Below, one piece after another: positions 1-22,246 of a stretch of DNA of 24,597 nt. Numbering within the stretch: the first letter of the stretch is position 1; every line of letters starts with the position of its first letter. The notes below the pieces were generated by a model. It saw only the letters and a list, made by a program, of their open reading frames with translations, was not told the DNA's origin and ran no database searches. The position numbers and the translations under genes were made by a program. The stretch comes from a virus, in the IMG/VR virus record IMGVR_UViG_3300022777_000060; one strand, written 5' to 3'.

Positions 1-287
1 TCGTTCTCTTTTTGTTCGCTTACTTTTCTTCCATATTTTGCTGCAGCCGTATGGCTTACATCAGCTTTTTCCTCGATCTCACTATAACTATGTCCTTGTT
101 TTCGCAGCTTTCTTATTTGCTCTATTTTTTTATCGGGTAACTTGTGCTGCTTTTTGCCGATGTCTTCAAGTCCTTCTTGCTTGCAGTGGTAGCTTATCGT
201 TCCCTTTGAACAACCAAGCTCTTCTTCTATTTCGTCATATGTTTTGTCTTGCTTTCGTAGTTTTACTATCTCTTCTTTGTAAGACAT
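1..287 (-). CDS. HTH-repeat protein, N-terminal part of a probable homing endonuclease (runs off the left edge); paralog of 21069..21767
   Basis: Manual translation MSYKEEIVKLRKQDKTYDEIEEELGCSKGTISYHCKQEGLEDIGKKQHKL... shares CSKGTISYHCKQEGLEDIGKKQ exactly with the 21069..21767 protein; absent from the ORF track because it is truncated. Confidence 0.85.
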   Translation of the reverse strand, partial: MSYKEEIVKLRKQDKTYDEIEEELGCSKGTISYHCKQEGLEDIGKKQHKLPDKKIEQIRKLRKQGHSYSEIEEKADVSHTAAAKYGRKVSEQKEN

Positions 288-376
288 GGCAGTTTTTTAC
301 TTGAACCCGATTCATTATTATATATGTTCGTGAGTTCAAATGTTCGGGTTCAAAAACAGTTTTACATAGTTTTCAA
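288..376 (-). promoter_or_regulatory. Conserved endonuclease leader: (T/C/A)(T/C)GAAC repeats, TATATAA box, inverted GTTCAA
   Basis: Aligns along its length with 21768-21859. Confidence 0.7.
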
Positions 377-404
377 CCGCTCTGTCCAACTGAGCTACGA
401 GGCA
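377..404 (-). pseudogene. 5' half of a tRNA (Arg-like, D-loop GGACA/A20), cut at the anticodon stem
   Basis: TGCCTCG TA GCTC AGTTGGACA GAGC GG followed by non-tRNA leader. Confidence 0.8.
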
Positions 405-410
405 TTGTTG

Positions 411-485
411 CTCCCCCGGCAAGATTCGAACTCGCGACACCCGGCTTCGAAGGCCGGTGCTCTGTCCAGGCTGAGCTACGGGGGA
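411..485 (-). tRNA. tRNA-Arg(TCG)
   Basis: Full cloverleaf; anticodon arm CCGGC-CT TCG AA-GCCGG. Confidence 0.95.
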
Positions 486-490
486 ATGTG

Positions 491-568
491 TGGTAGGGAG
501 AGCGAGATTCGAACTCGCGACTTCCTGCTCCCAAAGCAGGGGCTCTGACCGTGCTGAGCTATCTCCCT
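491..568 (-). tRNA. tRNA-Pro(TGG), CCA encoded
   Basis: CCTGC-TT TGG GA-GCAGG; acceptor AGGGAGA/TCTCCCT-A-CCA. Confidence 0.95.
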
Positions 569-580
569 ATCAAGGTGTGA

Positions 581-588
581 TTATATAT
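581..588 (-). promoter_or_regulatory. ATATATAA box (putative phage late-type promoter)
   Basis: Recurrent motif; here 12 nt upstream of tRNA-Pro. Confidence 0.55.
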
Positions 589-642
589 GTCAAAGATCGT
601 CTTTTGTTCCGAGTGCCCTGTCTTCTTCACAGAACCTTTTTG

Positions 643-715
643 CTGCTCGGCAAGGACTCGAACCTTGAACCTCGTGGTCCAGAGCCACGTGCTCTGCCAG
701 TTGAGCTACCGAGCA
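643..715 (-). tRNA. tRNA-Gln(CTG)
   Basis: CGTGG-CT CTG GA-CCACG; U1:A72, G73. Confidence 0.95.
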
Positions 716-834
716 GTGTTTGCGGGATTTGAACCCGCGATTCCATATTTCAGGCGGAGTTCCAAGCCTCTTCTTTCTTTTGCTTGATTGCGATTGCCGT
801 CACAACCGCAAGCCGCTTTCGCGAAAGCGAGCAA
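716..834 (-). ncRNA. Candidate structured RNA: three-way junction followed by a tRNA-like variable arm and T-arm
   Basis: Palindrome 814-829, hairpin 788-811, closing stem TTGCT/AGCAA; T-arm GCGGG-TTCAAAT-CCCGC at 722-738. Confidence 0.45.
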
Positions 835-835
835 G

Positions 836-1093
836 TCAAAGGTCGTTGAGCATTTCGCGAGCACTTTCGGCTTTGTTTTCGTGAAACTCAATATATTCTC
901 GAATCGCCTCGCGAACTTCCTCTTCGTCACGACCACTTCCAACCACACGATCAATGAAGTTCTTGCGGTTTCCCGTGACAAAATGTTCGTATCGGGTGTA
1001 TCCGTCTTTTGAAGTCGAACCCGCCTGAAAGTAGATTCTCGGCGGTTCTTTCGAGTTCGGATCTCCCGAGTAAATCATCCACTGCCGATCCAT
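836..1093 (-). CDS. Hypothetical phage protein (85 aa, start MDRQW)
   Basis: ORF track 836..1216 with the start moved downstream of tRNA-Pro. Confidence 0.75.
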   Translation of the reverse strand: MDRQWMIYSGDPNSKEPPRIYFQAGSTSKDGYTRYEHFVTGNRKNFIDRVVGSGRDEEEVREAIREYIEFHENKAESAREMLNDL

Positions 1094-1128
1094 GATCACA
1101 AAATGTCGAATCCAAAAGAACAAAACAG

Positions 1129-1203
1129 TCGAGCGGGTAGGATTTGAACCTACGGCTCCGTGCTCCCAAAGCACGCGCTCTGACCAGACTGAACTACCGC
1201 TCG
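1129..1203 (-). tRNA. tRNA-Pro(TGG), second copy
   Basis: CGTGC-TT TGG GA-GCACG; C1:G72, A73. Confidence 0.95.
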
Positions 1204-1370
1204 TCAAAGTCTTCAAGATCCTCTTGCATATCCTCCACGTCTTCCTGAATGTCCTCCATTTCTTCGTTCATCTTCCACATGATGATCCACTGGAAGACCT
1301 CAACAACGAAGAGGAACAGTCCAGCAACAATGCCAAGCTGATCGAGAAATACCCAAAATGGCGTATCCAC
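1194..1370 (-). CDS. Small single-TM protein with acidic tail (58 aa)
   Basis: Manual translation (GTG start) VDTPFWVFLDQLGIVAGLFLFVVEVFQWIIMWKMNEEMEDIQEDVEDMQEDLEDFDER*; stop lies inside tRNA-Pro. Confidence 0.65.
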   Translation of the reverse strand: MDTPFWVFLDQLGIVAGLFLFVVEVFQWIIMWKMNEEMEDIQEDVEDMQEDLEDFDER

Positions 1371-1417
1371 AAAAAGTCATTTGACAAAATGTTCGTCGTA
1401 ACCATTTTGGAGGAAAG

Positions 1418-1510
1418 TCGGACGGGATGGATTTGAACCACCGATGGACCCTTTCGGAATCTTCTGCTTTACAGGCAGATGGCTTCGACCAAGCTTACCT
1501 CTACCGTCCG
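1418..1510 (-). tRNA. tRNA-Tyr(GTA), atypical (C1:G72, irregular D-arm, long variable arm)
   Basis: TCTGC-CT GTA AA-GCAGA; acceptor CGGACGG/CCGTCCG-A; T-arm GGTGG-TTCAAAT-CCATC. Confidence 0.8.
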
Positions 1511-1515
1511 AATGT

Positions 1516-1641
1516 TGTCCGTATGGGGCCTGTTGAACTAAACACCCTTGCACTCCCACAGGCCAGCGGGGGGCCGATTCGCTATTCAGCATGTTCGTTT
1601 TGAACGAACATCAGCATAGCCATATCTCCATCGTACGGACA
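1516..1641 (-). ncRNA. Candidate 126-nt structured ncRNA of unknown class
   Basis: Terminal stem TGTCCGTA/TACGGACA; internal helices GGCCTGT/ACAGGCC, GCTAT/ATAGC, ATGTTCGTT/AACGAACAT; strand assumed from context. Confidence 0.55.
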
Positions 1642-1678
1642 CCGGGAGTTTTGGCGTCGGGATTTCACGCGTCTGTCG

Positions 1679-1712
1679 TGGATCGGGGAGGATTTGAACC
1701 TACCGAAGCACA
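1679..1712 (-). pseudogene. 3' remnant of an older tRNA-Tyr (variable-arm end, T-arm, acceptor 3' strand)
   Basis: TGTGCTTCGGTAGGTTCAAATCCTCCCCGATCCA aligns with the 3' end of the adjacent tRNA-Tyr, TGTGCTATGTGGGTTCGATTCCCTCCTAGCCCA. Confidence 0.75.
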
Positions 1713-1719
1713 AATAAAG

Positions 1720-1803
1720 TGGGCTAGGAGGGAATCGAACCCACATAGCACATAGGCAAGTGATTTACAGTCACCTGGACTCACCACACTGTCCAACTAA
1801 CCC
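1720..1803 (-). tRNA. tRNA-Tyr(GTA), bacterial type
   Basis: GGTGA-CT GTA AA-TCACT; G1:C72, A73, long variable arm. Confidence 0.92.
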
Positions 1804-2036
1804 TGTTTGTTTTCTCTTACTGAGTAATAGTACTCTTCCCAAGTGTCTCCAACTTGTTCTTCAAAAGTTTCTATGTCTTCCTTACCGATTTTTCCAGCGT
1901 GAAACAACCTATGGCAGTTTGGGCAAAGATAAGAGAGATTTTCGTGTCTATGCGGATTTTCAATCTCTCTTCCTTCTATATGGTGCAAATCTCCATGTGC
2001 TTCATTCCAACCACATCTACAACACCGATAATCCAT
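1797..2036 (-). CDS. HNH endonuclease (79 aa)
   Basis: CxxCG...LHHI...N(L)...LCPNCHRLFH motif; TAG stop lies in the tRNA-Tyr acceptor stem. Confidence 0.88.
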   Translation of the reverse strand: MDYRCCRCGWNEAHGDLHHIEGREIENPHRHENLSYLCPNCHRLFHAGKIGKEDIETFEEQVGDTWEEYYYSVRENKQG

Positions 2037-2037
2037 G

Positions 2038-2334
2038 TTATCTGCGCCGAATGTCAATGGCTTCTCCAGTGCGAATGAACACGAAGCTCTGAGCTAGCTC
2101 AAGCGAGCCGCTAATCGCTTCCAGCACAGGCGTCGGGGCAAGCCCAACGATCGTCTGAACGGTGCTCTTGACCTTCGCTGGCGTTCCAACACGAGCGGCA
2201 TTCCGAAGCATCGAAAGCGCCCTGTCTCCAGCCATCGTGTGGTCGAGACTGTCGACTCTGGATTCAAGCATTTCTTCGTCGTTCAGAACCGAATCCATGA
2301 GATCGTCCATCATTTCTTCCTTTTGCGTGTCCAT
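2038..2334 (-). CDS. Hypothetical protein (98 aa)
   Basis: ORF with acidic N-terminus, downstream of an ECF-like promoter. Confidence 0.75.
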   Translation of the reverse strand: MDTQKEEMMDDLMDSVLNDEEMLESRVDSLDHTMAGDRALSMLRNAARVGTPAKVKSTVQTIVGLAPTPVLEAISGSLELAQSFVFIRTGEAIDIRRR

Positions 2335-2379
2335 AAGTGGCTGGAAGTTGGTTGGAGCTTCTGTCGAATTTCCACCTGC

Positions 2380-2408
2380 TTACACGCGCAAGTCAGCACT
2401 TTGTTTCA
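2380..2408 (-). promoter_or_regulatory. ECF-sigma-like promoter TGAAAC-N16-CGTGTAA
   Basis: One of three copies with identical spacing. Confidence 0.65.
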
Positions 2409-2435
2409 CGACTTCACTCGGATTCACACAAACTC

Positions 2436-2477
2436 AAAAACCCTCCGCTTTCCGCGCCTTTCCGGAAAAACAGAGGG
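2436..2477 (-). terminator. Rho-independent terminator
   Basis: 13-bp stem CCCTCTGTTTTTC/GGAAAGCGGAGGG followed by TTTTT. Confidence 0.7.
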
Positions 2478-2504
2478 AGATTGAAGAGGCGCGGAGATAG
2501 CGTG

Positions 2505-2552
2505 TCAGCCGTTCACGGGTTCTTGCCGATATTTGCGCCGTTGGACAGTCAT
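2505..2552 (-). CDS. Putative 15-aa micropeptide MTVQRRKYRQEPVNG
   Basis: Lies between the TATATAA box (2579-2585) and the terminator, with an A/C-rich leader. Confidence 0.35.
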   Translation of the reverse strand: MTVQRRKYRQEPVNG

Positions 2553-2616
2553 GATTGTGTGTTTCGCTAACTCATTTATTATATAGGCCGCCGAATCCTA
2601 ACTTTCATTGAAGAAA

Positions 2617-2823
2617 CTATGAGATGCGCTGTGCGGCCGTCGGCCACTCACGCTCCAGCTCTTCAAGCCGCTCTTCCATTTCGCCAATGTCCGACTGAAT
2701 CCGCTGCCGGTTCCACGGCGACTCAATGCTATCAAGAGCGCTGCGCTTGCCTCGAATCGAGCCGCGAAGAACGGCCATTCGAGCAGCGGCTTCTTTTGTG
2801 GAGTCGACTTCGCGACGCTTCAT
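2617..2823 (-). CDS. Hypothetical coiled-coil protein (68 aa)
   Basis: ORF track; downstream of an ECF-like promoter. Confidence 0.75.
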   Translation of the reverse strand: MKRREVDSTKEAAARMAVLRGSIRGKRSALDSIESPWNRQRIQSDIGEMEERLEELEREWPTAAQRIS

Positions 2824-2859
2824 GATCTTTGAGGTCGGTTCATTTGATAACGCACCCCT

Positions 2860-2888
2860 TTACACGCGCCAAGCGAACAAGTGTTCCC
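2860..2888 (-). promoter_or_regulatory. ECF-sigma-like promoter GGGAAC-N16-CGTGTAA
   Basis: One of three copies with identical spacing. Confidence 0.65.
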
Positions 2889-2903
2889 GCCTTCACAGAA
2901 AGT

Positions 2904-4535
2904 TTATGTCGTCGTTACGGAAATCTCGCTGCTTTCTACGGTCTTGCCAGCTCCGGTCACTCTTCCGACGTAATAGTATGTCGTAGCGGAAGAAAGCCCG
3001 TCGTGCGTCCAAGACTCAGTTGAAGAAAGATTCGCGACTTCAGTTTCGGTAAATGTCGCAACCGTCTCGTCATAAGGGCCGCCAGAAGAAGTTCCAGCGA
3101 CAACCTCATACTCGTCAGCGATTGATGGATCTCCAAACGTGATATCACCGGACACGCTGCTTGAAGTTTGTCCAGTTGAAGAAACAGTCGGGCCGCTTGC
3201 TGCTTCAAGTCCAGAACGAACAAGCCCGTCTGTGAGCTTCGGAAATCGCTTGAGAGTCTTGAAGTCTCCGGTGTAAGGCTCGTCCATGTTTGACGTTTCG
3301 CCACCTGTGACAGAGCCTCTATCAACTCCAAGCCGAACCGTTCCGTCTTGATCGTATGTGAAGTCATACGCCTTTGACGCTGAAGTTCCGTTCACGTTGA
3401 GGTTGAGCGTTCCTTCCGACGTTCCAGCTTCAATCGCCAGCTCATTTGCCGACTGGTCAAACGGAACCCGAACCTCTTGGCCGTCTCCCTTGATGAAGAA
3501 AAGATCCGATACGTAACGGTGATACGTTATGAGCTTGCCCTGCCACACATTCGCAAAGCGAAATGGCCCGTTGAAGTTGTTACTGTCAAACTCTGAGTCG
3601 TCAAGGTCTTTCGTCAACGTTGAGCCGTCCCACTTCCAAACTCCGTCGCTTTCGAAAAATCCGAAACGTCCTGCCATATACAAGTCTCCGTCCCAAACGT
3701 GAAAACTGCTCAAATAGCTGCAAGCAGTTCCCTGAAAGTTCCACGTGTCAGCTTGCTTGTCGTATGTCCAGAACTGTCCGCTTTGCGTTCCTGCCACAAG
3801 CGTTCCATCATAAGAACCAAGCGCCACAAATCCGTTGAAGCTGTTTCCAGCGCTTCCTTGCGTTGAAGTATCGATCGCGGCGAACTCTTGCCAGCCGTTT
3901 GTCGGGTCGTAAGAAAGAATGTGGGCAGGCGGCCCTTCGTCATCAACCGCGAGATAAAGCGTTCCCTCGAAGACGCAAAGTCCCCAAGGAAACCCGTCAG
4001 AGAGGAAAGTGAAGTCGCCGCTTTGCAAAAAACTTTCATCCCAAGTGTTTCCGTCGTATTGCGTTACACTGGCGTTATTACCATTCGCCATATATGCGTT
4101 TCCATTGTAGACGACAAAGGATACGTAATACTCACTGGATGCGGTGTGGGGATTTGTCCAGCTTGAACCGTCGTATCGCCAAACCTCTCCGTTCTGAACA
4201 GTCACGTAAAGATCGCCGTCGTAAATACCGAGGCTATCGGGAAATCCGCTGAAAGACTTCGAAACTGTCCACGACGAGCCGTCCCAAAAGAGCACTTCGC
4301 TGTTGTTACCATTCTTCACCCAGAGATTTCCTTTGTAGTTGATTGCGTTTGGAAAGTTATGAGTTGCACTAGGGTTTGTGTTTCCGGAAATGCTGCTCCA
4401 TCGCCGCCATCCTTCAGAACTACTTGAGATTGTCGCGACAAATTGTCGCGACAATCTCATCGTCTTGGTTCCAGACGCGAAGCCCGTCAGACTCAATGAG
4501 CGTTTGTGGCTTTCCTTTGAGATCATCTGGATCAA
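2904..4535 (-). CDS. Adhesin/receptor-binding-like protein B, C-terminal part (beta-propeller, LamG half, FN3); coding frame joins 4420..4863 at about 4441
   Basis: YDGxxW blade repeats; C-terminal FN3 (HDGLSSATTYYY); paralogous to 5332..8178. Confidence 0.8.
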   Translation of the reverse strand: MIQMISKESHKRSLSLTGFASGTKTMRLSRQFVATISSSSEGWRRWSSISGNTNPSATHNFPNAINYKGNLWVKNGNNSEVLFWDGSSWTVSKSFSGFPDSLGIYDGDLYVTVQNGEVWRYDGSSWTNPHTASSEYYVSFVVYNGNAYMANGNNASVTQYDGNTWDESFLQSGDFTFLSDGFPWGLCVFEGTLYLAVDDEGPPAHILSYDPTNGWQEFAAIDTSTQGSAGNSFNGFVALGSYDGTLVAGTQSGQFWTYDKQADTWNFQGTACSYLSSFHVWDGDLYMAGRFGFFESDGVWKWDGSTLTKDLDDSEFDSNNFNGPFRFANVWQGKLITYHRYVSDLFFIKGDGQEVRVPFDQSANELAIEAGTSEGTLNLNVNGTSASKAYDFTYDQDGTVRLGVDRGSVTGGETSNMDEPYTGDFKTLKRFPKLTDGLVRSGLEAASGPTVSSTGQTSSSVSGDITFGDPSIADEYEVVAGTSSGGPYDETVATFTETEVANLSSTESWTHDGLSSATTYYYVGRVTGAGKTVESSEISVTTT

Positions 4536-4863
4536 CCTTCAAAGCGACGCTTTGAGAAACCGAAGAAGACACGTCGTCATTCGTTGAAACGTCCAACTCA
4601 TAACCGTCGTCGATGCCGTCCCATTTCACAGTCGGGTTGCCTTGCCCGTCAGTTACAAGAGAGCCACCTTCAACGATTTTTGCCTTCAGCCCGTCTGGTG
4701 CGCTCGTGTTTCCGGTAGGCCCCGACTGATTGCGAAACTGAACCAACCCGTCAGCGGTTGAACTATTTTGTGTGACGAAAGACACAACAGCGCCAGAGCC
4801 GATTTCGGATGGGCTAAACGTTTGTGTTGCGTCGTCGTCTGTTCGTTGAACGTCAATGCTCAT
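4420..4863 (-). CDS. Adhesin/receptor-binding-like protein B, N-terminal part (frameshifted by a 13-bp duplication)
   Basis: Collinear with the first ~145 aa of 5332..8178 (IGSGxVVSFVTQ, KIVExGSL, DDLKGxPQT, ATI). Confidence 0.8.
   Translation of the reverse strand: MSIDVQRTDDDATQTFSPSEIGSGAVVSFVTQNSSTADGLVQFRNQSGPTGNTSAPDGLKAKIVEGGSLVTDGQGNPTVKWDGIDDGYELDVSTNDDVSSSVSQSVALKVDPDDLKGKPQTLIESDGLRVWNQDDEIVATICRDNLK
4425..4459. repeat. 35-bp inverted repeat formed by a 13-bp tandem duplication within a 22-bp palindrome
   Basis: TGAGATTGTCGCGACAA-A-TTGTCGCGACAATCTCA. Confidence 0.95.
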
Positions 4864-4883: not shown

Positions 4884-5339
4884 CTATTCAATGCTCCAAG
4901 TCAAGTCAGAGTCTTCCGTGCCGCCTTCATCTTCGATTGACCACGTGAGATCGCTTGTGGACGTGTCAGAGAGGTCTTCGATGCCCCAAGCCAAGTCGTA
5001 CTCTGCAGTTGAAGTTGTCGGAGCGAACACGGTGGCCACGCCGGAAAATGGCGTGTCCCCTCCATTTGTATCTATCACTTTGGCTTTGTATTCATACGTT
5101 ACTGGATCCAATCCACTGTCGCTCCAACTTGCTGTTGTGTTGGTTGTTGAAACTTCTTGAACTTTCGAGAACGAAGACGCACTTTGTTTTTTTTCGGAAG
5201 ATTTCGTACCGTTGAAAGTTCCAGTGAATGTCGTTCCATCCACAGAAACCGTTCCACTAACGGAAGTTCCAGAACGGTTCGCCGAGATCGTCGGTGCGCT
5301 GCTTTGTTGATACTCTGCAGCCGCCGAAACTTCACTCAC
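4884..5339 (-). CDS. FN3-like protein with three C-terminal DLxWxIE repeats; probable continuation of 5332..8178
   Basis: WSDSGLDPVTYEYKAKV FN3 signature; repeats YDLAWGIED/SDLTWSIED/SDLTWSIE. Confidence 0.75.
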   Translation of the reverse strand: MSEVSAAAEYQQSSAPTISANRSGTSVSGTVSVDGTTFTGTFNGTKSSEKKQSASSFSKVQEVSTTNTTASWSDSGLDPVTYEYKAKVIDTNGGDTPFSGVATVFAPTTSTAEYDLAWGIEDLSDTSTSDLTWSIEDEGGTEDSDLTWSIE

Positions 5340-8178
5340 TGCTCTCGATTGGACTGACAGAAGTGTACCCAGGCGTGACTCGCGTCTTATAGAAGAAGTC
5401 TTCTCCTGTAGTCAGTCCCGAATGCGTCCAACTCACTTGTTGGTTTGAAGGCGCAATGACTTCCTTGATGACCTGAAATGATCCTCCAGAGTTCGGAGCA
5501 GCGAGAACTTCAATCTTCGTTATGTTTTCAGGGACGATGCTTGTAGAAGCTGTTCCCTTTATAAAGGTGTCCCCAACAGAGCTTATCGAAGTCGTTACGG
5601 TAACACTTCCTTGGTTAATCGCGGCTTCAAGCGGATCTTCCAAAAGTCCAGGATACCAAAGAAACTCTTGAATCGCACCCTTATAACTTTCGTCAACCGG
5701 AGCATGTTGATCAGTTCTTCCCCCTCCGTAGCTAAGACCAAGCCGTACGTTTCCACTCTCTTTATAATCAACATTGTGAGAAACGATTTGTTGCTGCCCC
5801 TCAACGTCGAGGAACAAAACGTCCTCATTCACTGCTGCCGTTATACTGATTTCATCTTTCGTGTCGTCATAGGTGGTAAACAACTCTTCACCATTACCCT
5901 TTCGGTAAATGCCACCACTCCCACTAAATCCACTCGCAGCCCAAAGTTCACCTTTATGGACATTGATTGCCTTCCAGCTAGAACCCGTACCAGAAAGACT
6001 GCTTTTCTCTAATGTTTGTCCGTCCCATTTCCAAACCCCTTCATCGCTGGAGTTACTGAAAAACTCTTCCGTGAGATAGAGATCGCCGTCATAAACAGCC
6101 GATCCAGCTCTGTAGCTAAGTTCTATGCCAGTGGAATCTTCAGAGAACGAAGTTTCGAAAGCTTGATTACCCTCATCTAATACCCCGCTTATTTGTGAAT
6201 CCAGATTTCCGCCAAAGGAAAAGACACTCAGAGTATTGAGTTCACCCTTGTAACTTGGCGCAGATCCCGGAGAATAAATCGGAACACTTTCAGTTTCCTT
6301 TATACCAAAGTCATATTCAAGCTGAAGTCCAGTTTCCGGTGTCCAAGAATACATTGCTCCCAAACCTCGAAGGTGATATCCTGGAATCCACACCTTATCA
6401 TTCCACACCCCCGCTCCATGAGTTCCGGAAACATTATTCTCAAATCCTCCGATTCGAGCAATGGCATTGTTTTCAAACTGTTCTTCGGAAATCGCTTGTG
6501 ACCATTGGTTTCCATCATACCGATGAAGGATCGGATTCTCTGAGTCCAAAAAGTATGCGTCGCCGCGAAAAATGAAGCTGCTGGTGATGTTCGACCCGAA
6601 CCGAGGAAACGCAGACTTTTCAAACGTCCGACTACTTGAATCCCAAGATGATGAAAGACTGTATTGCTTAACAGCGGAGTTTGTGGTTTCTACAGAATCC
6701 GGAATCGGATCACCTGGATCTACGTCCGGATTCTCTGAAGCCACATACAAGTTGTTCCCGTCTGATTTGAAAGCAACCCCCCAAATTCCAGTTCCTTCGA
6801 CATCATCCAAAACTTCATCTAGAGAGTATGTGTTTGTGCTACTAACACTGCTAATGTCCCAAGCGGTCGAAAAGTTCTTCTCTATCAGATCATCAAAAGT
6901 TCCGAAGTATGCCTGAGTACCGTCCGGCCGGAAGAACATTCCCGTGCTGTTATCATCTCCCCCTGTACCGAACGAGTTTCCAGTAAAGGAAGCTGAACTT
7001 GGATCCCAAGCGGTTGAAAGATTATAGCTATACACTCTTGATTCCAGAGTACCGGAACCATCTCTTTCGGACTTGATAAACATTTTCGTTCCATCCGGTT
7101 TAAAGGCAACGCCATTCGGAACCCCAACTTCAGAGTTGAAATCGTATTCCGTTACAAAGGAAAGACTCTCGACTTCCCAAGCTGTCCCAAAGTCAAACTC
7201 AGCAATCGTTCGGCTCTCACTTGTTGAAGCGCCTTTGTCACTTACCCAAATTTTCGTTCCATCCGGTTTAATGTAGCTACCCCCAATCTCTGTAAGCCCA
7301 CTGCTGTCCGATATTGCCGGGAAGGAGTTCCCCCCGACGTACTCTCCAGAGCCAATATCCCAAGGCGTAGAAAGATCGAACTGGTGGATGTTCTCGTCTG
7401 AAACGTAGAGCTTCGATCCGTCTGGTTTGAACTGGAGAGCGCCCCTTCCTTTGGGGAAAACCTGTTCAACAGTCCAGGACGAGCCGTTATACGACTTTAT
7501 CTGAGATTGGTTATCGTTTTGAGCCCAAAGATTCCCGTCATACACGATCATGTCTCCACGCAATGTGCTGCTGAATGCTTCCCCTTGATCAACACTTATA
7601 AGCTGCTCATTCTGTGGATCCCATTTACTGATTTTGAAGCTGCTGAAGTTGAACTTCGTGAAAAAATATACTTCCCCCTCATAAGACTTGATTCCAGCAA
7701 TCGCTGCGGGAACCGGAGTTCGAACCGCTTCAGCATCCAAATCCGGATTTGAGATTGTCGCGAAGATTTTTCCATCCCGTTCCCAAACTTCTAACCCATT
7801 TGAATTTACGATTGTTTGTGGAGACCCCTTCAAGTCATCAACATCGACTGTCAACTCTACGCTTTGTATTCTACTTTGGGAAACTCCAGACGCATTGCTG
7901 AACTCAACTTCGTATCCGTCCTGTTTCTGGCTCCAATTTACTGTTCCACCACCGCCGCTTGTTGCAAGACTTCCACTTTCGACGATTTTCGGATACCTAT
8001 CGAGAGCTGGAGCAAGGGCATTTCCACCTTCAGCAACTTGGTTAAGAAAACGAACTCGGCCGTCAGCATTCGAGTCCTGTTGCGTCACAAAAGACACAAC
8101 CGATCCAGATCCAATGTCGGAAACATTGAATGCTTGAACCGCTCCATCTGTGGATCTTCGAACTTCGATTGCAGACAC
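5332..8178 (-). CDS. Adhesin/receptor-binding-like protein A (split LamG, two nested beta-propellers, FN3), 948 aa
   Basis: FKPDG/LSTAWD repeats, YDGxxW repeats, YKGAIQEFLWYP LamG-like end, HSGLTTGEDFFYK FN3. Confidence 0.8.
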   Translation of the reverse strand: MSAIEVRRSTDGAVQAFNVSDIGSGSVVSFVTQQDSNADGRVRFLNQVAEGGNALAPALDRYPKIVESGSLATSGGGGTVNWSQKQDGYEVEFSNASGVSQSRIQSVELTVDVDDLKGSPQTIVNSNGLEVWERDGKIFATISNPDLDAEAVRTPVPAAIAGIKSYEGEVYFFTKFNFSSFKISKWDPQNEQLISVDQGEAFSSTLRGDMIVYDGNLWAQNDNQSQIKSYNGSSWTVEQVFPKGRGALQFKPDGSKLYVSDENIHQFDLSTPWDIGSGEYVGGNSFPAISDSSGLTEIGGSYIKPDGTKIWVSDKGASTSESRTIAEFDFGTAWEVESLSFVTEYDFNSEVGVPNGVAFKPDGTKMFIKSERDGSGTLESRVYSYNLSTAWDPSSASFTGNSFGTGGDDNSTGMFFRPDGTQAYFGTFDDLIEKNFSTAWDISSVSSTNTYSLDEVLDDVEGTGIWGVAFKSDGNNLYVASENPDVDPGDPIPDSVETTNSAVKQYSLSSSWDSSSRTFEKSAFPRFGSNITSSFIFRGDAYFLDSENPILHRYDGNQWSQAISEEQFENNAIARIGGFENNVSGTHGAGVWNDKVWIPGYHLRGLGAMYSWTPETGLQLEYDFGIKETESVPIYSPGSAPSYKGELNTLSVFSFGGNLDSQISGVLDEGNQAFETSFSEDSTGIELSYRAGSAVYDGDLYLTEEFFSNSSDEGVWKWDGQTLEKSSLSGTGSSWKAINVHKGELWAASGFSGSGGIYRKGNGEELFTTYDDTKDEISITAAVNEDVLFLDVEGQQQIVSHNVDYKESGNVRLGLSYGGGRTDQHAPVDESYKGAIQEFLWYPGLLEDPLEAAINQGSVTVTTSISSVGDTFIKGTASTSIVPENITKIEVLAAPNSGGSFQVIKEVIAPSNQQVSWTHSGLTTGEDFFYKTRVTPGYTSVSPIESSE

Positions 8179-13862: not shown

Positions 13863-14407
13863 GAGAGAAGTTCAGGGTTTTGCCATTTGTTGCCAACGAC
13901 TTCAGCCTCTTTGTCCCATTGAAAATCCGGAGCTGAACTTTCGGGTCCGTGAAATGCCCACTTATGCCCTTCAATGTGATGAATGAAGAATCCCCCTGCT
14001 TCCCAACGAACGACTCCCAGAGCCCCGCTATAATCGTCCACGAAGTCGTCAATGCCATCAATGCCGTCAACATCTTCAATATCGGGCGCCTCGTCGTTTT
14101 CTTCAAGCCACTCTCGCTCGTGTTCAGCGCCCAAGTGGCGAACTCGCTTCAAGACGTCGCCTTCGTAAACGTCGTCGCCGTTCCGGTCGGTCCATCCAGT
14201 GAACCAACTGAACGTAAGCCCTTCCTCTTGGATCTCACGGTAGCTCGCGTAAATCTCGCCGTTTTGGTAGTCTCCCTCACAGCCGAGGCTAACGTACTTG
14301 CCGTCGCCCTGTACAGCCGTCGCTTCGGCAACGAAGATACGATCGGATTTCTCGTCGTACACCCGAAACTTCGGCTCAAAACCTTCGGTCTGGAAACTAC
14401 TAGCCAT
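13859..14407 (-). CDS. YopX family protein
   Basis: KFRVYD...FTGWTDRNGDDVYEGDVL...VVRWEAGGF...EVVGNKWQNPELL. Confidence 0.88.
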   Translation of the reverse strand: MASSFQTEGFEPKFRVYDEKSDRIFVAEATAVQGDGKYVSLGCEGDYQNGEIYASYREIQEEGLTFSWFTGWTDRNGDDVYEGDVLKRVRHLGAEHEREWLEENDEAPDIEDVDGIDGIDDFVDDYSGALGVVRWEAGGFFIHHIEGHKWAFHGPESSAPDFQWDKEAEVVGNKWQNPELLS

Positions 14408-14627
14408 ACTGGCTTCTGCGGAACTTGAGTTCGAGTTTGTCTTTGACGTCTTCCGAGATCTCACCGTTGAGGTTCATGGCAGGAACTTTGGATTTCGACG
14501 AAGGCTTCCACGCTTCGAGCGCTCCATTTCTTGACACTCGAATCCACAGGCTTTCCCCGTCAATCGGTTCTTCAAGCTCGACAAGATGCCGCTTGACGAT
14601 TTCTTTTTCGTAGTTCAGAAGATTCAT
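14400..14627 (-). CDS. Hypothetical protein (75 aa)
   Basis: ORF track; coupled overlaps. Confidence 0.75.
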   Translation of the reverse strand: MNLLNYEKEIVKRHLVELEEPIDGESLWIRVSRNGALEAWKPSSKSKVPAMNLNGEISEDVKDKLELKFRRSQYG

Positions 14628-14947
14628 ACCGTCTCTACGGTGTTGTAGTCCATGAGGTTGATAACGACTGCCGATTCGTCTGGAGCCTCTCCGCGAAGGT
14701 AGCTTTGATGCTCAATCCGCAGCACCTTATTCACGATCACGGATTCGGTGTCGGACGAAAATCGAATCTGTCCCTTGATTGCGGCCGTCGTCAGCGCTTC
14801 GTACAGCCGCTCTTGAGGCTCAGAAGTGTCGGGAATGCTTGAATCAGAGCCAGTGTCGCCGCCGATGGCTCCAATAGAGCTTTGAAGCTCAGATACGGCA
14901 AACTGAAACTCGTCGAGTCGGGTTTGAAGGGTTCGATCGTTGACCAT
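14624..14947 (-). CDS. Hypothetical protein (107 aa)
   Basis: ORF track. Confidence 0.75.
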   Translation of the reverse strand: MVNDRTLQTRLDEFQFAVSELQSSIGAIGGDTGSDSSIPDTSEPQERLYEALTTAAIKGQIRFSSDTESVIVNKVLRIEHQSYLRGEAPDESAVVINLMDYNTVETV

Positions 14948-14957
14948 AGTTTTTCTG

Positions 14958-15251
14958 CTATTGAATGATGATACGTTCAGCGTCGATGAACTCTCGTCCG
15001 TCTTGAAACGTGACGAACACCGCGAAGTCTACGTTTTGGTATGGCAACTTGCCTACCTGAATCTTTTCAATGGTCCCATGAACTTCGCCAACCCGATCTC
15101 CTTCAGACTGTCCTTCTTGAAACGGATAAATGAGTTTTACCGTTTCACCTACGAGTTGATTGTTCAGTTCACGTCGAGCTGCGCGATAGGCGGCATTGAC
15201 TTGATCTTGAAATCGTTCTCTGGCGTCGGAAAGCACGTCTTCTTCAGGCAT
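14958..15251 (-). CDS. Hypothetical protein (97 aa)
   Basis: ORF track; A/C-rich leader. Confidence 0.75.
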   Translation of the reverse strand: MPEEDVLSDARERFQDQVNAAYRAARRELNNQLVGETVKLIYPFQEGQSEGDRVGEVHGTIEKIQVGKLPYQNVDFAVFVTFQDGREFIDAERIIIQ

Positions 15252-15332
15252 CGTCTTGTTGGGTTGGTTCGATTATAGCGCATATGCTTCAACTGATCAG
15301 CCGCCTGTTTGTTCGTGAAGGAAGTGTGAAAT

Positions 15333-15704
15333 CTACTTGGGCCGCACAACCAAGTCTTCTCTCTTCGGCCGCCAAATATCGTCAGTGACCTCAATCACGA
15401 CCTCCACTTTCGTCGTGTCTTCGAAGTTTTCGTAGAGATAAGCGTCAGTAGTGCGGTAGATGCCCTTCGGATGCATGACGTAAAGATTGCTTTGCCCGTC
15501 AACTGTCATGCGCTCTGCAAAGACTTGAGATCGGTCAGTAGGCTTATAGGTCGTTTTGGTTGTGACTACTCCTAATACGACGAATCCACAAACCGCGATA
15601 AGCGAACCTATCGCCAATCCTTCGCCCTTTCTATGACGTTCAGCAAAAATGACTGGAATGATAAGGCAGAGAAAAAGGATTACCAATCCCGACCACGTGC
15701 TCAT
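15333..15704 (-). CDS. Membrane protein with two N-terminal TM segments
   Basis: Hydrophobic segments; start moved downstream of tRNA-Thr. Confidence 0.7.
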   Translation of the reverse strand: MSTWSGLVILFLCLIIPVIFAERHRKGEGLAIGSLIAVCGFVVLGVVTTKTTYKPTDRSQVFAERMTVDGQSNLYVMHPKGIYRTTDAYLYENFEDTTKVEVVIEVTDDIWRPKREDLVVRPK

Positions 15705-15737
15705 TTGACAAAAAAGCCCGTAAGAAAGAAAATAAAG

Positions 15738-15814
15738 AGCCACCGGACGGATTCGAACCGCCGACTTCGCCCTTACGAGGGGCGCGCTCTGGACCGAACT
15801 AAAGCTACGGTGGC
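15738..15814 (-). tRNA. tRNA-Thr(CGT)
   Basis: CGCCC-CT CGT AA-GGGCG; U73. Confidence 0.95.
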
Positions 15815-15819
15815 TTGCA

Positions 15820-16020
15820 TTACAGGATGAGCCAGAGAAGCAAGGCGGTGATCATCAAGTACCCGATAACCATCGCCCAAAACATGCTTCTACCTGGCGC
15901 GCCGTGAGCGCCAAAAGCCGTAGGCTCGTAGAAGAAATAGTCGTACACTCGAAGCGCAACCCAAGCAGGAATGGCTCCAACGACCATCGCCGTCAAATGT
16001 GCCCAAACAAAGGTTCTCAT
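15820..16020 (-). CDS. Small 2-TM membrane protein (66 aa)
   Basis: Two hydrophobic segments. Confidence 0.7.
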   Translation of the reverse strand: MRTFVWAHLTAMVVGAIPAWVALRVYDYFFYEPTAFGAHGAPGRSMFWAMVIGYLMITALLLWLIL

Positions 16021-16023
16021 CAG

Positions 16024-16338
16024 TCAGTACTCCATTTCTTCAACTTCAAGTCCAAGCTCTTCGGCAAGGCTCGGGTCGCCGTCCGCAGACCAGGTCGTGA
16101 TTTCCGTGACTGGCGTTCCGTCTTCGCCACAGTAGTTCGGGCCGTTCTTGTAGTTCCAAACCACAAGAGGGCGTCCGGTGTCAGCATCCCTCACGTCCCA
16201 CTGAACGTCAATCTTGTACGTCTTTCCAGAAAGATCCTCTGGATAGCCGAGAGCGTCGACCAGCTCTTTGTAGCTGGCGTGGATCGTCATTGTTCGGCTG
16301 GTGCCGCCTGAACTGCCCTTTTGAATGTTCATGTTCAA
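16024..16338 (-). CDS. Hypothetical phage protein (104 aa)
   Basis: ORF track; GTS...ASY.EL...G.P...K.D..W pattern typical of small phage proteins. Confidence 0.8.
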   Translation of the reverse strand: MNMNIQKGSSGGTSRTMTIHASYKELVDALGYPEDLSGKTYKIDVQWDVRDADTGRPLVVWNYKNGPNYCGEDGTPVTEITTWSADGDPSLAEELGLEVEEMEY

Positions 16339-16367
16339 AAGTAAGTGGTTATGAGCAAAAGGTCAAG

Positions 16368-16443
16368 AGCACGGGGTGAGATTTGAACTCACGTTGACGC
16401 GGCTTTGCAGGCCGCCGCCTAAACCGGACTCGGCCACCCGTGC
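16368..16443 (-). tRNA. tRNA-Cys(GCA)
   Basis: GCGGC-CT GCA AA-GCCGC; U73. Confidence 0.95.
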
Positions 16444-16447
16444 ATTG

Positions 16448-16520
16448 AGGTGAGGGGTGGATTCAAACCACCGTAACAACCCTTGCGGGGCTGCGCCTAA
16501 TCGGACTCGGCCACCTCACC
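16448..16520 (-). tRNA. tRNA-Cys(GCA), atypical (C33, A19:U56)
   Basis: CAGCC-CC GCA AG-GGTTG; T-loop TTTGAAT; perfect acceptor stem; U73. Confidence 0.7.
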
Positions 16521-16592
16521 ATTGTTGTTACGTGCGTGTTTAATCGCTTGTTCCAGTGACTCGCACAACTTGTCGAAAACTTCAGCTTCCAT
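16497..16592 (-). CDS. 31-aa peptide resembling the HigA antitoxin N-terminal helix
   Basis: Manual translation MEAEVFDKLCESLEQAIKHARNNNGEVAESD*; fills the gap between the previous gene and the tRNA. Confidence 0.6.
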   Translation of the reverse strand: MEAEVFDKLCESLEQAIKHARNNNGEVAESD

Positions 16593-16596
16593 TGTC

Positions 16597-16788
16597 TTAT
16601 GTGATTATGGTCCAAGCTCCAACGAAGAAACACGCCACTGTGAAAATCCCAAACAGTAGGCAAATCATTCCGGAAACTTCTTTCGAAGGCTCAATGCCCA
16701 CTGCTCCAAGCAAAAACGCCAGAATCAACGTGAGCGGAGCACCTGCCCACATAAGCCCACGAAGCGTTTTTTCGAGAACCGAAAACAT
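16597..16788 (-). CDS. Small 2-TM membrane protein (63 aa)
   Basis: Two hydrophobic segments. Confidence 0.7.
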   Translation of the reverse strand: MFSVLEKTLRGLMWAGAPLTLILAFLLGAVGIEPSKEVSGMICLLFGIFTVACFFVGAWTIIT

Positions 16789-16790
16789 GG

Positions 16791-16979
16791 TCAGTTTTCG
16801 TGACTTGAGAAATAGTTCTCGCCGCTGATCGTTTCGGACTCTTCCCGAACGCCTTCCCGAATCTTTTGAGCAACTGCTTCTCGCGCCGCCTCTGATTCGA
16901 GATTCGCGTCACCGAACTGCTCTAAGGCGTCACGTGTAATATCGAGAAGGTCTTTCTCTTCAAAAAGAATCATTTCCAT
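16791..16979 (-). CDS. Hypothetical acidic protein (62 aa)
   Basis: ORF track. Confidence 0.7.
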   Translation of the reverse strand: MEMILFEEKDLLDITRDALEQFGDANLESEAAREAVAQKIREGVREESETISGENYFSSHEN

Positions 16980-17005
16980 ATCGGAGTGAGGAAGGTATAT
17001 TGTTG

Positions 17006-17081
17006 TAACCCCCCCGGGACTCGAACCCGGAAGCGTCGCGTTTTGAGCGCGACAGGTCTGCCAAATTCCCGTCAGGGGGCC
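17006..17081 (-). tRNA. tRNA-Leu(CAA) with short variable loop
   Basis: TCGCG-CT CAA AA-CGCGA; 5-nt variable loop; A73. Confidence 0.85.
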
Positions 17082-17091
17082 ATGTTATAAG

Positions 17092-17186
17092 TACCCCCGA
17101 GAGGACTCGAACCTCCAATCCCAAACCGATAGGCATTGGGCACAGGATCTTAAATCCCGCGTGTATACCAGTTCCACCACGAGGGC
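17092..17186 (-). tRNA. tRNA-Leu(TAA) with very long variable arm
   Basis: CGGGA-TT TAA GA-TCCTG; 26-nt variable region. Confidence 0.92.
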
Positions 17187-20972: not shown

Positions 20973-20992
20973 AGCCAGAAGCGAGATTTGAA
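20973..20992 (-). pseudogene. 3' remnant of an older tRNA (T-loop, T-stem 3' strand, acceptor 3' strand, U73; Thr-like)
   Basis: TTCAAAT-CTCGC-TTCTGGC-T, 1 nt after tRNA-Thr. Confidence 0.6.
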
Positions 20993-20993
20993 G

Positions 20994-21068
20994 AGCTGGA
21001 GGTCAGATTCGAACTGACGGATCTGCTAGATACCAACTAGCTGCCTTACCGAGCTTGGCCACTCCAGC
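20994..21068 (-). tRNA. tRNA-Thr(GGT)
   Basis: GCTAG-TT GGT AT-CTAGC; acceptor GCTGGAG/CTCCAGC-T. Confidence 0.95.
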
Positions 21069-21767
21069 TTACAAAACAAAATCTTTTGCCATTCTACACT
21101 CTTGTCCGTTTTTCGGAAGTTCTATTCTAAGGTGAAAACTGTGATGGCAGTTTTCAACTTCTTCAAACGGAACAAGATAACACTCACCCGTTTCTTTTGA
21201 GTATGTTGCAAAATAGTCTACTTGACCGTGATAAGTATAAGTTTTTCCACCCGATACACTACACGTTCTTATTTGAAGTCTTTCTCCATTTTTTGACTTC
21301 GGAGTTTTACATTGAACCCTCTGAAAGTTTTCGTTCTCATCTTCAAAAACAATGTCATATCTATCATTCTCTCCATAAGGTTCCAGCACAGTGTGACCGA
21401 GTTCAACAAGTCTTGTTGCTACTTTCAACTCGGTCAGGTCACCCTTATCTTTTTTATGTTGTGTCGGTCCAGAGTTCTCTTTTACTTTTCGGACTTTTTT
21501 CTTTTTATCTCCATACTTTTGAACCGTGCTTTCACTTACATCAAAGCGGTCTGCAGTTTGTTCTTTTGTATAGTTTTTGTAATATTCGCGTATTTTTTCT
21601 TGCTCTTCTTCGCTTATTTCTTTTTGCTTCTTGCCTATATCTTCAAGTCCTTCTTGCTTGCAATGGTAAGATATCGTCCCTTTCGAACAATCAAGCTCTT
21701 CTTTTATTTCGTTATAGGTCTTGCCTTCCTTTCGAAGTCGTATGATGTCTTTCTTATACTTGCTCAT
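21069..21767 (-). CDS. Tandem-HTH plus PD-(D/E)XK endonuclease (I-Ssp6803I / group I intron-associated PDDEXK_5-like), free-standing
   Basis: KGDLTE...PYGENDRYDIV...RVQCKT...VDYFATY...YLVP; two N-terminal HTH-like repeats; AT-rich relative to flanks. Confidence 0.85.
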   Translation of the reverse strand: MSKYKKDIIRLRKEGKTYNEIKEELDCSKGTISYHCKQEGLEDIGKKQKEISEEEQEKIREYYKNYTKEQTADRFDVSESTVQKYGDKKKKVRKVKENSGPTQHKKDKGDLTELKVATRLVELGHTVLEPYGENDRYDIVFEDENENFQRVQCKTPKSKNGERLQIRTCSVSGGKTYTYHGQVDYFATYSKETGECYLVPFEEVENCHHSFHLRIELPKNGQECRMAKDFVL

Positions 21768-21859
21768 TGAACTTTACTTATTTTGAACGCTCACTCAATA
21801 GTATATATAAACCAAACGTTCAAAGTTCGAGTTCAAACAGGACTTTACACAAAGTTCAA
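21768..21859 (-). promoter_or_regulatory. Conserved endonuclease leader with GTTCRA repeats around a TATATA box
   Basis: Homologous to 288-376. Confidence 0.7.
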
Positions 21860-21892
21860 AGAAGCGTTCTGGCCGAGCTGAACTATGCAGGC
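21860..21892 (-). pseudogene. 5' half of a tRNA (positions 1-31; Thr-like, but Val or Phe not excluded)
   Basis: GCCTGCA TA GTTC AGCTCGGCCA GAAC G CTTCT followed by the leader. Confidence 0.8.
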
Positions 21893-22169: not shown

Positions 22170-22246
22170 TTGTCCCGGATAGATTTGAACTACCGCCCTT
22201 TCGCTTATCAGACGACTGCTCTAAGACCAGACTGAGCTACGGGACA
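22170..22246 (-). tRNA. tRNA-Ile(GAT)
   Basis: GTCGT-CT GAT AA-GCGAA; acceptor TGTCCCG/CGGGACA-A. Confidence 0.92.

Follow-up and report, generated by a model that had tools for sequence, protein, structure and literature searches.

What broke the tRNA gene at the left edge of a viral tRNA array, and what has come to lie between its remains, is the question raised by the first few hundred nucleotides of the window, by which we mean the whole 24,597-nt stretch of DNA analysed (IMG/VR record IMGVR_UViG_3300022777_000060). A tRNA array fills most of the window, every gene lies on the minus strand, and 17 tRNAs were called by ARAGORN and 18 by Rfam. Two tRNAs found by Rfam on the minus strand (15738..15814 and 22170..22246; 53.6 and 59.4 bits) were missed by ARAGORN, and the tRNA-Tyr at 1417..1510, with a length of 94 nt, reaches a score of only 30.6 bits. 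Our reading of the unit at the left edge, hereafter copy A, is that a large uncultured phage carries here, within its tRNA array, a free-standing homing endonuclease cassette, which moves together with a same-isotype tRNA allele presumed to be resistant and leaves the cut gene as two pieces; we assign this reading a probability of about 80%. It is supported directly by the anatomy of the unit, the family and fold of its nuclease, the partnership between the tRNA half and the scar, the lack of an intron and a pair of occupied and empty sites within the family.

The window ends inside the open reading frame (ORF) of copy A, and several routes toward the adjacent sequence were unproductive. Positions 1-3000 gave no match by megablast against phage records, an exact 60-mer scan of viral contigs returned no match for the window, the exact-protein look-up of a 98-aa ORF at 2041-2334 found no record, and a Logan contig around 4423-4863 ended at about window position 2423, short of the left edge. 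A protein search with the full-length paralogue of the window, P0002, retrieved P0014 (250 aa). Both proteins are recorded on one contig of 110,967 bp, and residues 1-95 of P0014 are identical to the partial ORF of the window. The public contig of 1,587 bp that encodes P0014 (L003) is 100% identical to window 463..1 and then continues for 1,124 bp, window positions being obtained as 464 minus the L003 position. In the region of the Logan contig, a 147-aa ORF (4420..4863, minus strand) has the same N-terminus as a 948-aa protein (5332..8178) and overlaps, in another frame, the start of a 543-aa ORF (2904..4535); the stretch 2904..4863 looks like a paralogue of the large fibre-like protein that is either frameshifted or in two parts.

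All features of copy A are given as read on the minus strand of the window. The upstream neighbour, an intact tRNA-Arg(tcg) (410..485; ARAGORN; Rfam 62.4 bits), ends 5 nt before the broken tRNA. The 5' half of the latter, which the sequence-only reading had placed at 377-404, is present and its coordinates are corrected here to 373..404 (L003 60-91). Its 32 nt, read directly, are composed of TGCCTCG, TA, the D-arm GCTC/AGTTGGACA/GAGC, G and GTTGA, corresponding to the acceptor strand, the D-arm, position 26 and the 5' strand of the anticodon stem, or about positions 1-31 of an Arg-type tRNA, and the D-stem forms 4/4 Watson-Crick pairs. It is followed by a leader of 85 nt delimited by alignments (288..372; L003 92-176) and by the ORF of P0014, which starts at an ATG at 287 and runs off the left edge (1..287), leaving in the window the first 95 of its 250 codons, which encode two helix-turn-helix (HTH) modules; the full ORF spans L003 177-929. 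The linker, the PD-(D/E)XK domain, the cargo tRNA and the scar lie 1-566 nt past the left edge. The cargo is an intact tRNA-Arg(gcg) (L003 920-994; ARAGORN; Rfam 59.9 bits) that contains the final three codons of P0014 and its TAG stop, which is U8-A9-G10 of the tRNA. Directly after the cargo stands a T-arm/acceptor scar of 35 nt (L003 995-1029), with ten bases, the T-arm GTGGG/TTCGAAT/CCTAC, the strand CGAGGCA and an A. The carried unit comprises a leader with a promoter-like box of its own, the enzyme of 250 aa and the intact tRNA-Arg(gcg), and the earlier expectation that the ORF would end at or within an intact tRNA, probably Arg, followed by a 3' tRNA scar, was borne out in L003. Between this scar and a tRNA-Glu, a conserved non-coding stretch (L003 1040-1200, about 580-740 nt left of the window start) has counterparts in two related loci (L008 5586-5657 and L011 3790-3940). 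The L003 and L008 versions share 90% identity, the stretch includes a repeated GGATAAG-CCT word, and no Rfam model matched it at E up to 1; by analogy with the species I/II RNAs of T4, it may give rise to a small stable RNA.

The relationship between the two pieces of the broken gene is given by their acceptor strands. The strand CGAGGCA of the scar (L003 1022-1028) forms 7/7 Watson-Crick pairs with TGCCTCG of the 5' half, an outcome with a chance probability of about 6e-5 in one fixed register, and because the pairing is perfect we consider the half and the scar to be opposite ends of a single former tRNA gene. A T1-A72 pair is peculiar to these two pieces, the otherwise similar half in L008 beginning with A. 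Between them lie the leader, the ORF and a complete tRNA, while neither piece retains the anticodon loop or the 3' strand of the anticodon stem, and the variable loop may be lost as well. The D-arm word TAGCTCAG-N(1-4)-GGACAGAGC occurs in 4/45 tRNA-Arg and in 0/446 other tRNAs (491 distinct tRNAs from all fetched loci), and the T-arm and acceptor of the scar differ at two positions from the tRNA-Arg(gcg) of L008; on account of this signature and this likeness, the old gene is assigned as an Arg tRNA. With its anticodon lost, the replacement of Arg by Arg at copy A is a probable assignment that rests on the D-arm signature and the T-arm/acceptor resemblance. A search of viral contigs for the intact allele of the broken gene yielded a single match to the pattern of the 5' half, an intact tRNA-Arg(tct) of an unrelated contig that shares the D-arm, and an empty-site allele was found for the Cys relative described below and none for copy A. 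Moreover, L008 carries a 5' half alike at 28/32 positions, placed before an enzyme 41% identical and without a scar, which indicates that the half of copy A may travel with the element instead of marking a fresh event at this site.

The nuclease domain that had been predicted past the edge, as either HNH or PD-(D/E)XK, proved to be of the latter type. Residues 112-241 of P0014 match PF11645 (PDDEXK_5) with E 1.6e-28 and 99.9 bits (cut-off 26.1), and P0002 matches the same family with E 1.9e-28; the Pfam matches of both proteins comprise HTH families and PF11645 only, without a GIY-YIG domain, and the 95 residues available in the window match HTH families only. A profile built from 18 relatives had I-Ssp6803I (2OST) as its sole match in the PDB (E 2.9e-14). 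In the AlphaFold2 model of P0014 (pLDDT 82.5), two three-helix HTH modules, which resemble LuxR/sigma-70 region 4, are joined by a disordered lysine-rich linker (residues 90-98) to an alpha/beta nuclease domain, and the four chains of 2OST take the first four places among the Foldseek matches of the model (best E 9.6e-9, probability 1.00, target-normalised TM 0.63-0.68). Residues D144, Q157 and K159 are invariant across the 18 relatives and align to the YDLVF and VQVK stretches of 2OST, whose D and QxK residues we take to be the catalytic residues of I-Ssp6803I. As judged from profile matches and a predicted structure, the nuclease of P0014 is a PD-(D/E)XK enzyme related to I-Ssp6803I.

The leader of copy A (372..288) aligns with that of copy B, the second cassette of the window (21859..21768), in agreement with the homology noted in the sequence-only reading, and also with those of five further relatives; over about 85 nt, six leaders can be aligned. 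It contains a TATAAT box (317..322) located in the loop of a 10-bp inverted repeat, TTGAACCCGA/TCGGGTTCAA (344..353 and 301..310), which includes the T-loop-like word GGTTCAA; in L003, the T-loop word GGTTCRA was observed 5 times against 0.61 expected. The inverted-repeat arrangement is present in five scanned leaders (copy A, L006, L008, L011a and L050), and in the leader of copy B a repeat of 8 bp, TTTGAACG/CGTTCAAA, was read by eye. The bases flanking the core of the repeat co-vary as CG/CG, CCG/CGG, CTG/CAG and CTT/AAG. A sigma-70 consensus scan of the leader found no canonical promoter, the TATAAT having no -35 partner at 16-18 nt, and the box is called promoter-like on the basis of its conservation. 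The repeat may act as an RNA hairpin, as an operator for the HTH modules of the enzyme itself, or as both. A transcript starting just past the TATAAT box would be devoid of the 5' arm of the repeat, while read-through transcripts of the array would have both arms, a two-arm versus one-arm scheme that resembles the control proposed for T4 endonuclease genes.

Copy B repeats this layout at a different tRNA. On the minus strand, it consists of a stranded 5' half of a Thr-like tRNA (21860..21892, read directly), whose best match among the 491 tRNAs is a tRNA-Thr(cgt) of L050 (score 23; next 14), the leader (21768..21859), the 232-aa HTH-HTH and PD-(D/E)XK enzyme P0002 (21069..21767) and an intact tRNA-Thr(ggt) (20993..21068) that begins right after the TAA stop. 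A probable degenerate 3' scar at 20973..20992, also read directly, is weaker than that of copy A; recognisable in it are a T-loop (TTCAAAT) and the 3' strand of the T-stem, together with an acceptor-like strand able to pair with the 5' half at 5/7 positions. The ORFs of the two copies are identical at 46/84 positions (BLASTP E 3e-28) and diverge in the second HTH, and the stretch of 22 identical residues that had drawn attention to them, CSKGTISYHCKQEGLEDIGKKQ, is indeed common to 287..3 (minus strand) and 21069..21767.

The locus L050 provides the occupied counterpart of a site that is empty in the window. Its order is an intact tRNA-Cys, a Cys 5' half, the leader, a 40%-identical enzyme, a new tRNA-Cys and a Cys T-arm/acceptor scar, and the acceptor strands of half and scar pair at 7/7 positions, one pair being G-U. 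L050 is syntenic with window 17122..13940, where an intact tRNA-Cys(gca) (16367..16443, minus strand), flanked on either side by syntenic BLAST matches, represents the empty-site allele of the gene split in L050. The scar of L050 is 96.6% identical to window 16365..16393 (the last 29 nt of the tRNA-Cys), and its 5' half aligns to positions 1 to about 31 of the same tRNA. Judged by these alignments, the pair is direct evidence that everything between the Cys pieces, the new tRNA included, was inserted into a once-intact gene. The suggestion of an element family, initially based on two insertions in different tRNAs, was thus strengthened by the recurrence of the layout at a Thr-like tRNA (copy B) and at tRNA-Cys (L050), with the window as the empty site. 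Additionally, the old and cargo Cys alleles of L050 share the T-arm and differ at 5/5 positions of the 5' strand of the anticodon stem, which, at the level of sequence comparison, agrees with preferential cutting in the anticodon arm.

Other relatives, located in tRNA arrays of other large phage contigs, depart from this arrangement in part. L004, L006, L011a and L011b have only a T-arm/acceptor scar directly after the stop, and L004, L006 and L011a have no 5' half, their leader abutting a complete tRNA; with these three relatives lacking the half, the layout is not uniform. In L008, the Arg-type 5' half is accompanied by an intact tRNA-Arg(tcg) that overlaps the stop, without a scar, as if the right-hand crossover had fallen inside the tRNA. 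The broken tRNA beside each copy is probably not an arbitrary target, since the isotype of the cargo, as deduced from sequence, matches that of the broken tRNA each time. In L011, a tRNA-shaped stretch on which ARAGORN was silent (4027-4105), whose variable region is 9 nt long and whose anticodon-like loop carries TTC, is found just upstream of a second PD-(D/E)XK cassette, and a T-arm/acceptor scar follows immediately after the stop of that cassette. The window itself holds a third cassette of the same logic (1678..2057, minus strand), in which the ORF is small (about 79-86 aa) and of HNH type (PF01844, E 9.6e-5; several PHROG HNH families) and its TAG lies inside the 5' end of a tRNA-Tyr (1803..1719). 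The stretch 1705..1678, 13 bases past this tRNA-Tyr, is 100% identical to the last 28 nt (T-arm and acceptor) of the intact tRNA-Tyr of L008 and is accordingly read as a scar of the old Tyr gene.

The N-terminal HTH module of these enzymes, of about 45 residues (consensus MSKYK.DII.LRK.GKSY.EI..ELGCSKGTI.YHC), was found by scans of viral and metagenome contigs at about 100 loci, with C-termini of PD-(D/E)XK, HNH_4 or unrecognised type. The ORFs with this module end between -20 and +15 nt from the 5' end of a same-strand tRNA in 41/93 distinct cases, compared to 23/234 among the remaining ORFs (90 aa or longer) of these loci. Orphan T-arms were also more frequent in the 170 nt around and after the stops of HTH-module ORFs (15 versus about 4.5 expected, a 3.4-fold enrichment; background elsewhere in such loci, 0.28 per kb). 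In eight loci (L019, L034, L057, L058, L059, L102, L126 and L003), the ORF overlaps the downstream tRNA by exactly 10 nt and its stop is the U8-A9-G10 (TAG) of the tRNA, so that cleavage by RNase P would leave an mRNA without a stop codon.

For the cassette reading, the following course of events can be proposed. In a mixed infection, the enzyme would cut a sensitive allele of the same tRNA in a cassette-free phage, in or near the anticodon arm, and the cassette-bearing genome would serve as the template for repair of the break. With poor flanking homology, the unit would be copied between the broken ends, leaving the resident gene as a 5' half (1 to about 31) and a 3' scar (T-arm and acceptor strand). 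The cargo tRNA would then supply the isotype, and the broken target could no longer be cut. We infer the position of the cut, in or near the anticodon arm, and also that the HTH modules bind the T-arm word GGTTCRA both in tRNA genes and in the inverted repeat of the leader, the latter resulting in self-repression. The T-arm word alone cannot tell sensitive from resistant alleles. Expression may further be damped by RNase P, whose cut at the 5' end of the tRNA would remove the last three codons and the stop of the enzyme.

Alternatively, the half and the scar could be the exons of one tRNA gene around a group I or other intron coding for the endonuclease, an arrangement with which the I-Ssp6803I family of the nuclease, the break at the anticodon arm and the origin of both halves from one tRNA would agree. 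However, no group I or other intron family was detected in the window (Rfam, gathering score) or in L003 (E up to 1), and ARAGORN, allowing introns of up to 1500 nt, assembled no tRNA from the halves of copy A, copy B or L050. The interval of copy A is filled by the ORF and the complete nested tRNA, with only the 85-nt leader left for any ribozyme, and neither half contains the anticodon loop or the 3' strand of the anticodon stem. A group I core with a joinable 3' half, the finding that would have turned the element into a spliced intron, was not found in these searches, and we regard this explanation as extremely improbable; the ORF of copy A lies outside any intron or intein and is sited inside its presumed target gene. 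A bulge-helix-bulge intron or a split tRNA in an archaeal virus, considered on account of the TATA-like box and acidic proteins, was likewise dropped, given that the 3' piece offers no pairing partner for the 5' strand of the anticodon stem, that a complete tRNA is nested between the pieces and that the gene content points to a T4-like phage.

Two further explanations keep the fragments but remove the homing. The fragments could be ordinary tRNA pseudogenes, produced as the array duplicated and lost segments between its conserved D-arm and T-arm boxes, with the endonuclease located in a tolerant spacer without being the cause; the duplicated isoacceptors of the window array (two each of Pro, Tyr and Cys) and the background of orphan T-arms in such loci speak for such decay. 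It does not account for the nested order of half, leader, enzyme, same-isotype tRNA and, about 10 nt later, scar, which is shared by the Arg, Thr and Cys cases even though their enzymes have only 40-43% mutual identity, nor for the excess of orphan T-arms after HTH-module ORFs, and the pair formed by L050 and the window shows insertion into an intact gene, which makes chance decay unlikely. The protein could also be a domesticated, immobile regulator or a processing or defence factor, with the fragments as old scars. HTH modules of the LuxR/sigma-70 region 4 kind, a conserved inverted repeat around a promoter-like box and the benefit reported for the phage endonuclease SegB in tRNA gene amplification would suit a resident role of this kind. 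Against it stand the patchy distribution, the two diverged copies at different tRNAs of one genome, the retained catalytic residues and the existence of the occupied and empty pair, in which the 96.6% identity of the L050 scar to the intact allele indicates a recent event; a domesticated factor is accordingly quite unlikely. Mobility with a replacement tRNA, that is, the cassette reading, is thus the explanation retained here.

A broader and speculative idea, which we consider doubtful, is that the HTH module is a portable reader of tRNA genes combined with at least three nuclease classes (PD-(D/E)XK, HNH and the unrecognised C-termini), and that such cassettes drive a continual like-for-like exchange of tRNA alleles between phages that could be kept by selection. 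Since the exchanged alleles differ mainly in the anticodon stem, this traffic could supply phage tRNAs that escape host anticodon or tRNA nucleases. If true, the element would be partly mutualistic, as in the tRNA amplification driven by SegB.

Homing endonucleases are thought to persist in essential genes by means of self-splicing introns or inteins. Copy A would solve the same survival problem at an RNA gene without splicing, by breaking the resident gene and supplying its own copy of the same isotype. Splice-free homing has been described for the WHO elements of Torulaspora and Lachancea yeasts, whose integration swaps part of the target for a carried copy (PMC7282813). Similarly, copy A nests an intact tRNA-Arg(gcg) between the stranded ends of an Arg-type tRNA, and the L050 element does likewise for Cys. 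The WHO elements, however, are eukaryotic and nuclear, have an intein-like nuclease and replace the 3' end of the protein-coding gene FBA1, whereas copy A supplies a whole RNA gene and leaves both ends of the old one. Our literature search turned up no account of phage homing endonucleases accompanied by split tRNA genes that enclose a replacement tRNA. Such events could explain why the tRNA sets of large phages are duplicated, fragmentary and quick to change, and split-tRNA scars could act as a simple mark of them in annotation.

The intron that harbors I-Ssp6803I is located in an anticodon loop. The enzyme is a PD-(D/E)XK homing endonuclease of a group I intron in the tRNA-fMet of Synechocystis (PDB 2OST; PMC3384342), with about 150 aa, a tetrameric form and a 23-bp pseudo-palindromic target, and such intron-encoded enzymes are described as generally cyanobacterial (PMC3384342). 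P0014 has the same nuclease family and predicted fold, and a tRNA gene is the target in both, by prediction in the case of P0014. In contrast to I-Ssp6803I, which has no extra DNA-binding module and relies on splicing of the intron that encodes it, the nuclease domain of P0014 is fused to two HTH modules and is free-standing, the function of the gene being restored by the cargo tRNA. The habitat of this rare, mainly cyanobacterial and intron-borne family would thus be widened to free-standing genes of phage tRNA arrays, and the shared HTH module seems dedicated to tRNA genes.

Judged by analogy, the closest working counterpart of copy A is SegB of phages T4 and T6, although copy A is not a member of that family. 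SegB is a free-standing GIY-YIG homing endonuclease of the T-even tRNA cluster that recognises the T-arm word GGTTCRANTCC and co-converts neighbouring tRNA genes; its stop is at the 5' processing site of a tRNA-Arg, which has been proposed to limit expression, its homologues are enriched beside tRNAs, and a beneficial role in tRNA gene amplification has been reported (PMC2330249; PMC13096335). Copy A is also free-standing in a phage tRNA array, is predicted to target tRNA genes and has an ORF that ends at a tRNA-Arg. The two differ in that SegB combines a GIY-YIG domain with NUMOD and cuts at the 3' end of tRNA genes, whereas copy A has a PD-(D/E)XK domain with N-terminal HTH modules, and no description was found for SegB of a split resident tRNA with a nested like-for-like replacement. 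Altogether, intronless homing in a phage tRNA cluster is a kind of behavior already known, of which copy A would be a variant with an unusual nuclease family and with the splitting and replacement of an RNA gene as its outcome.
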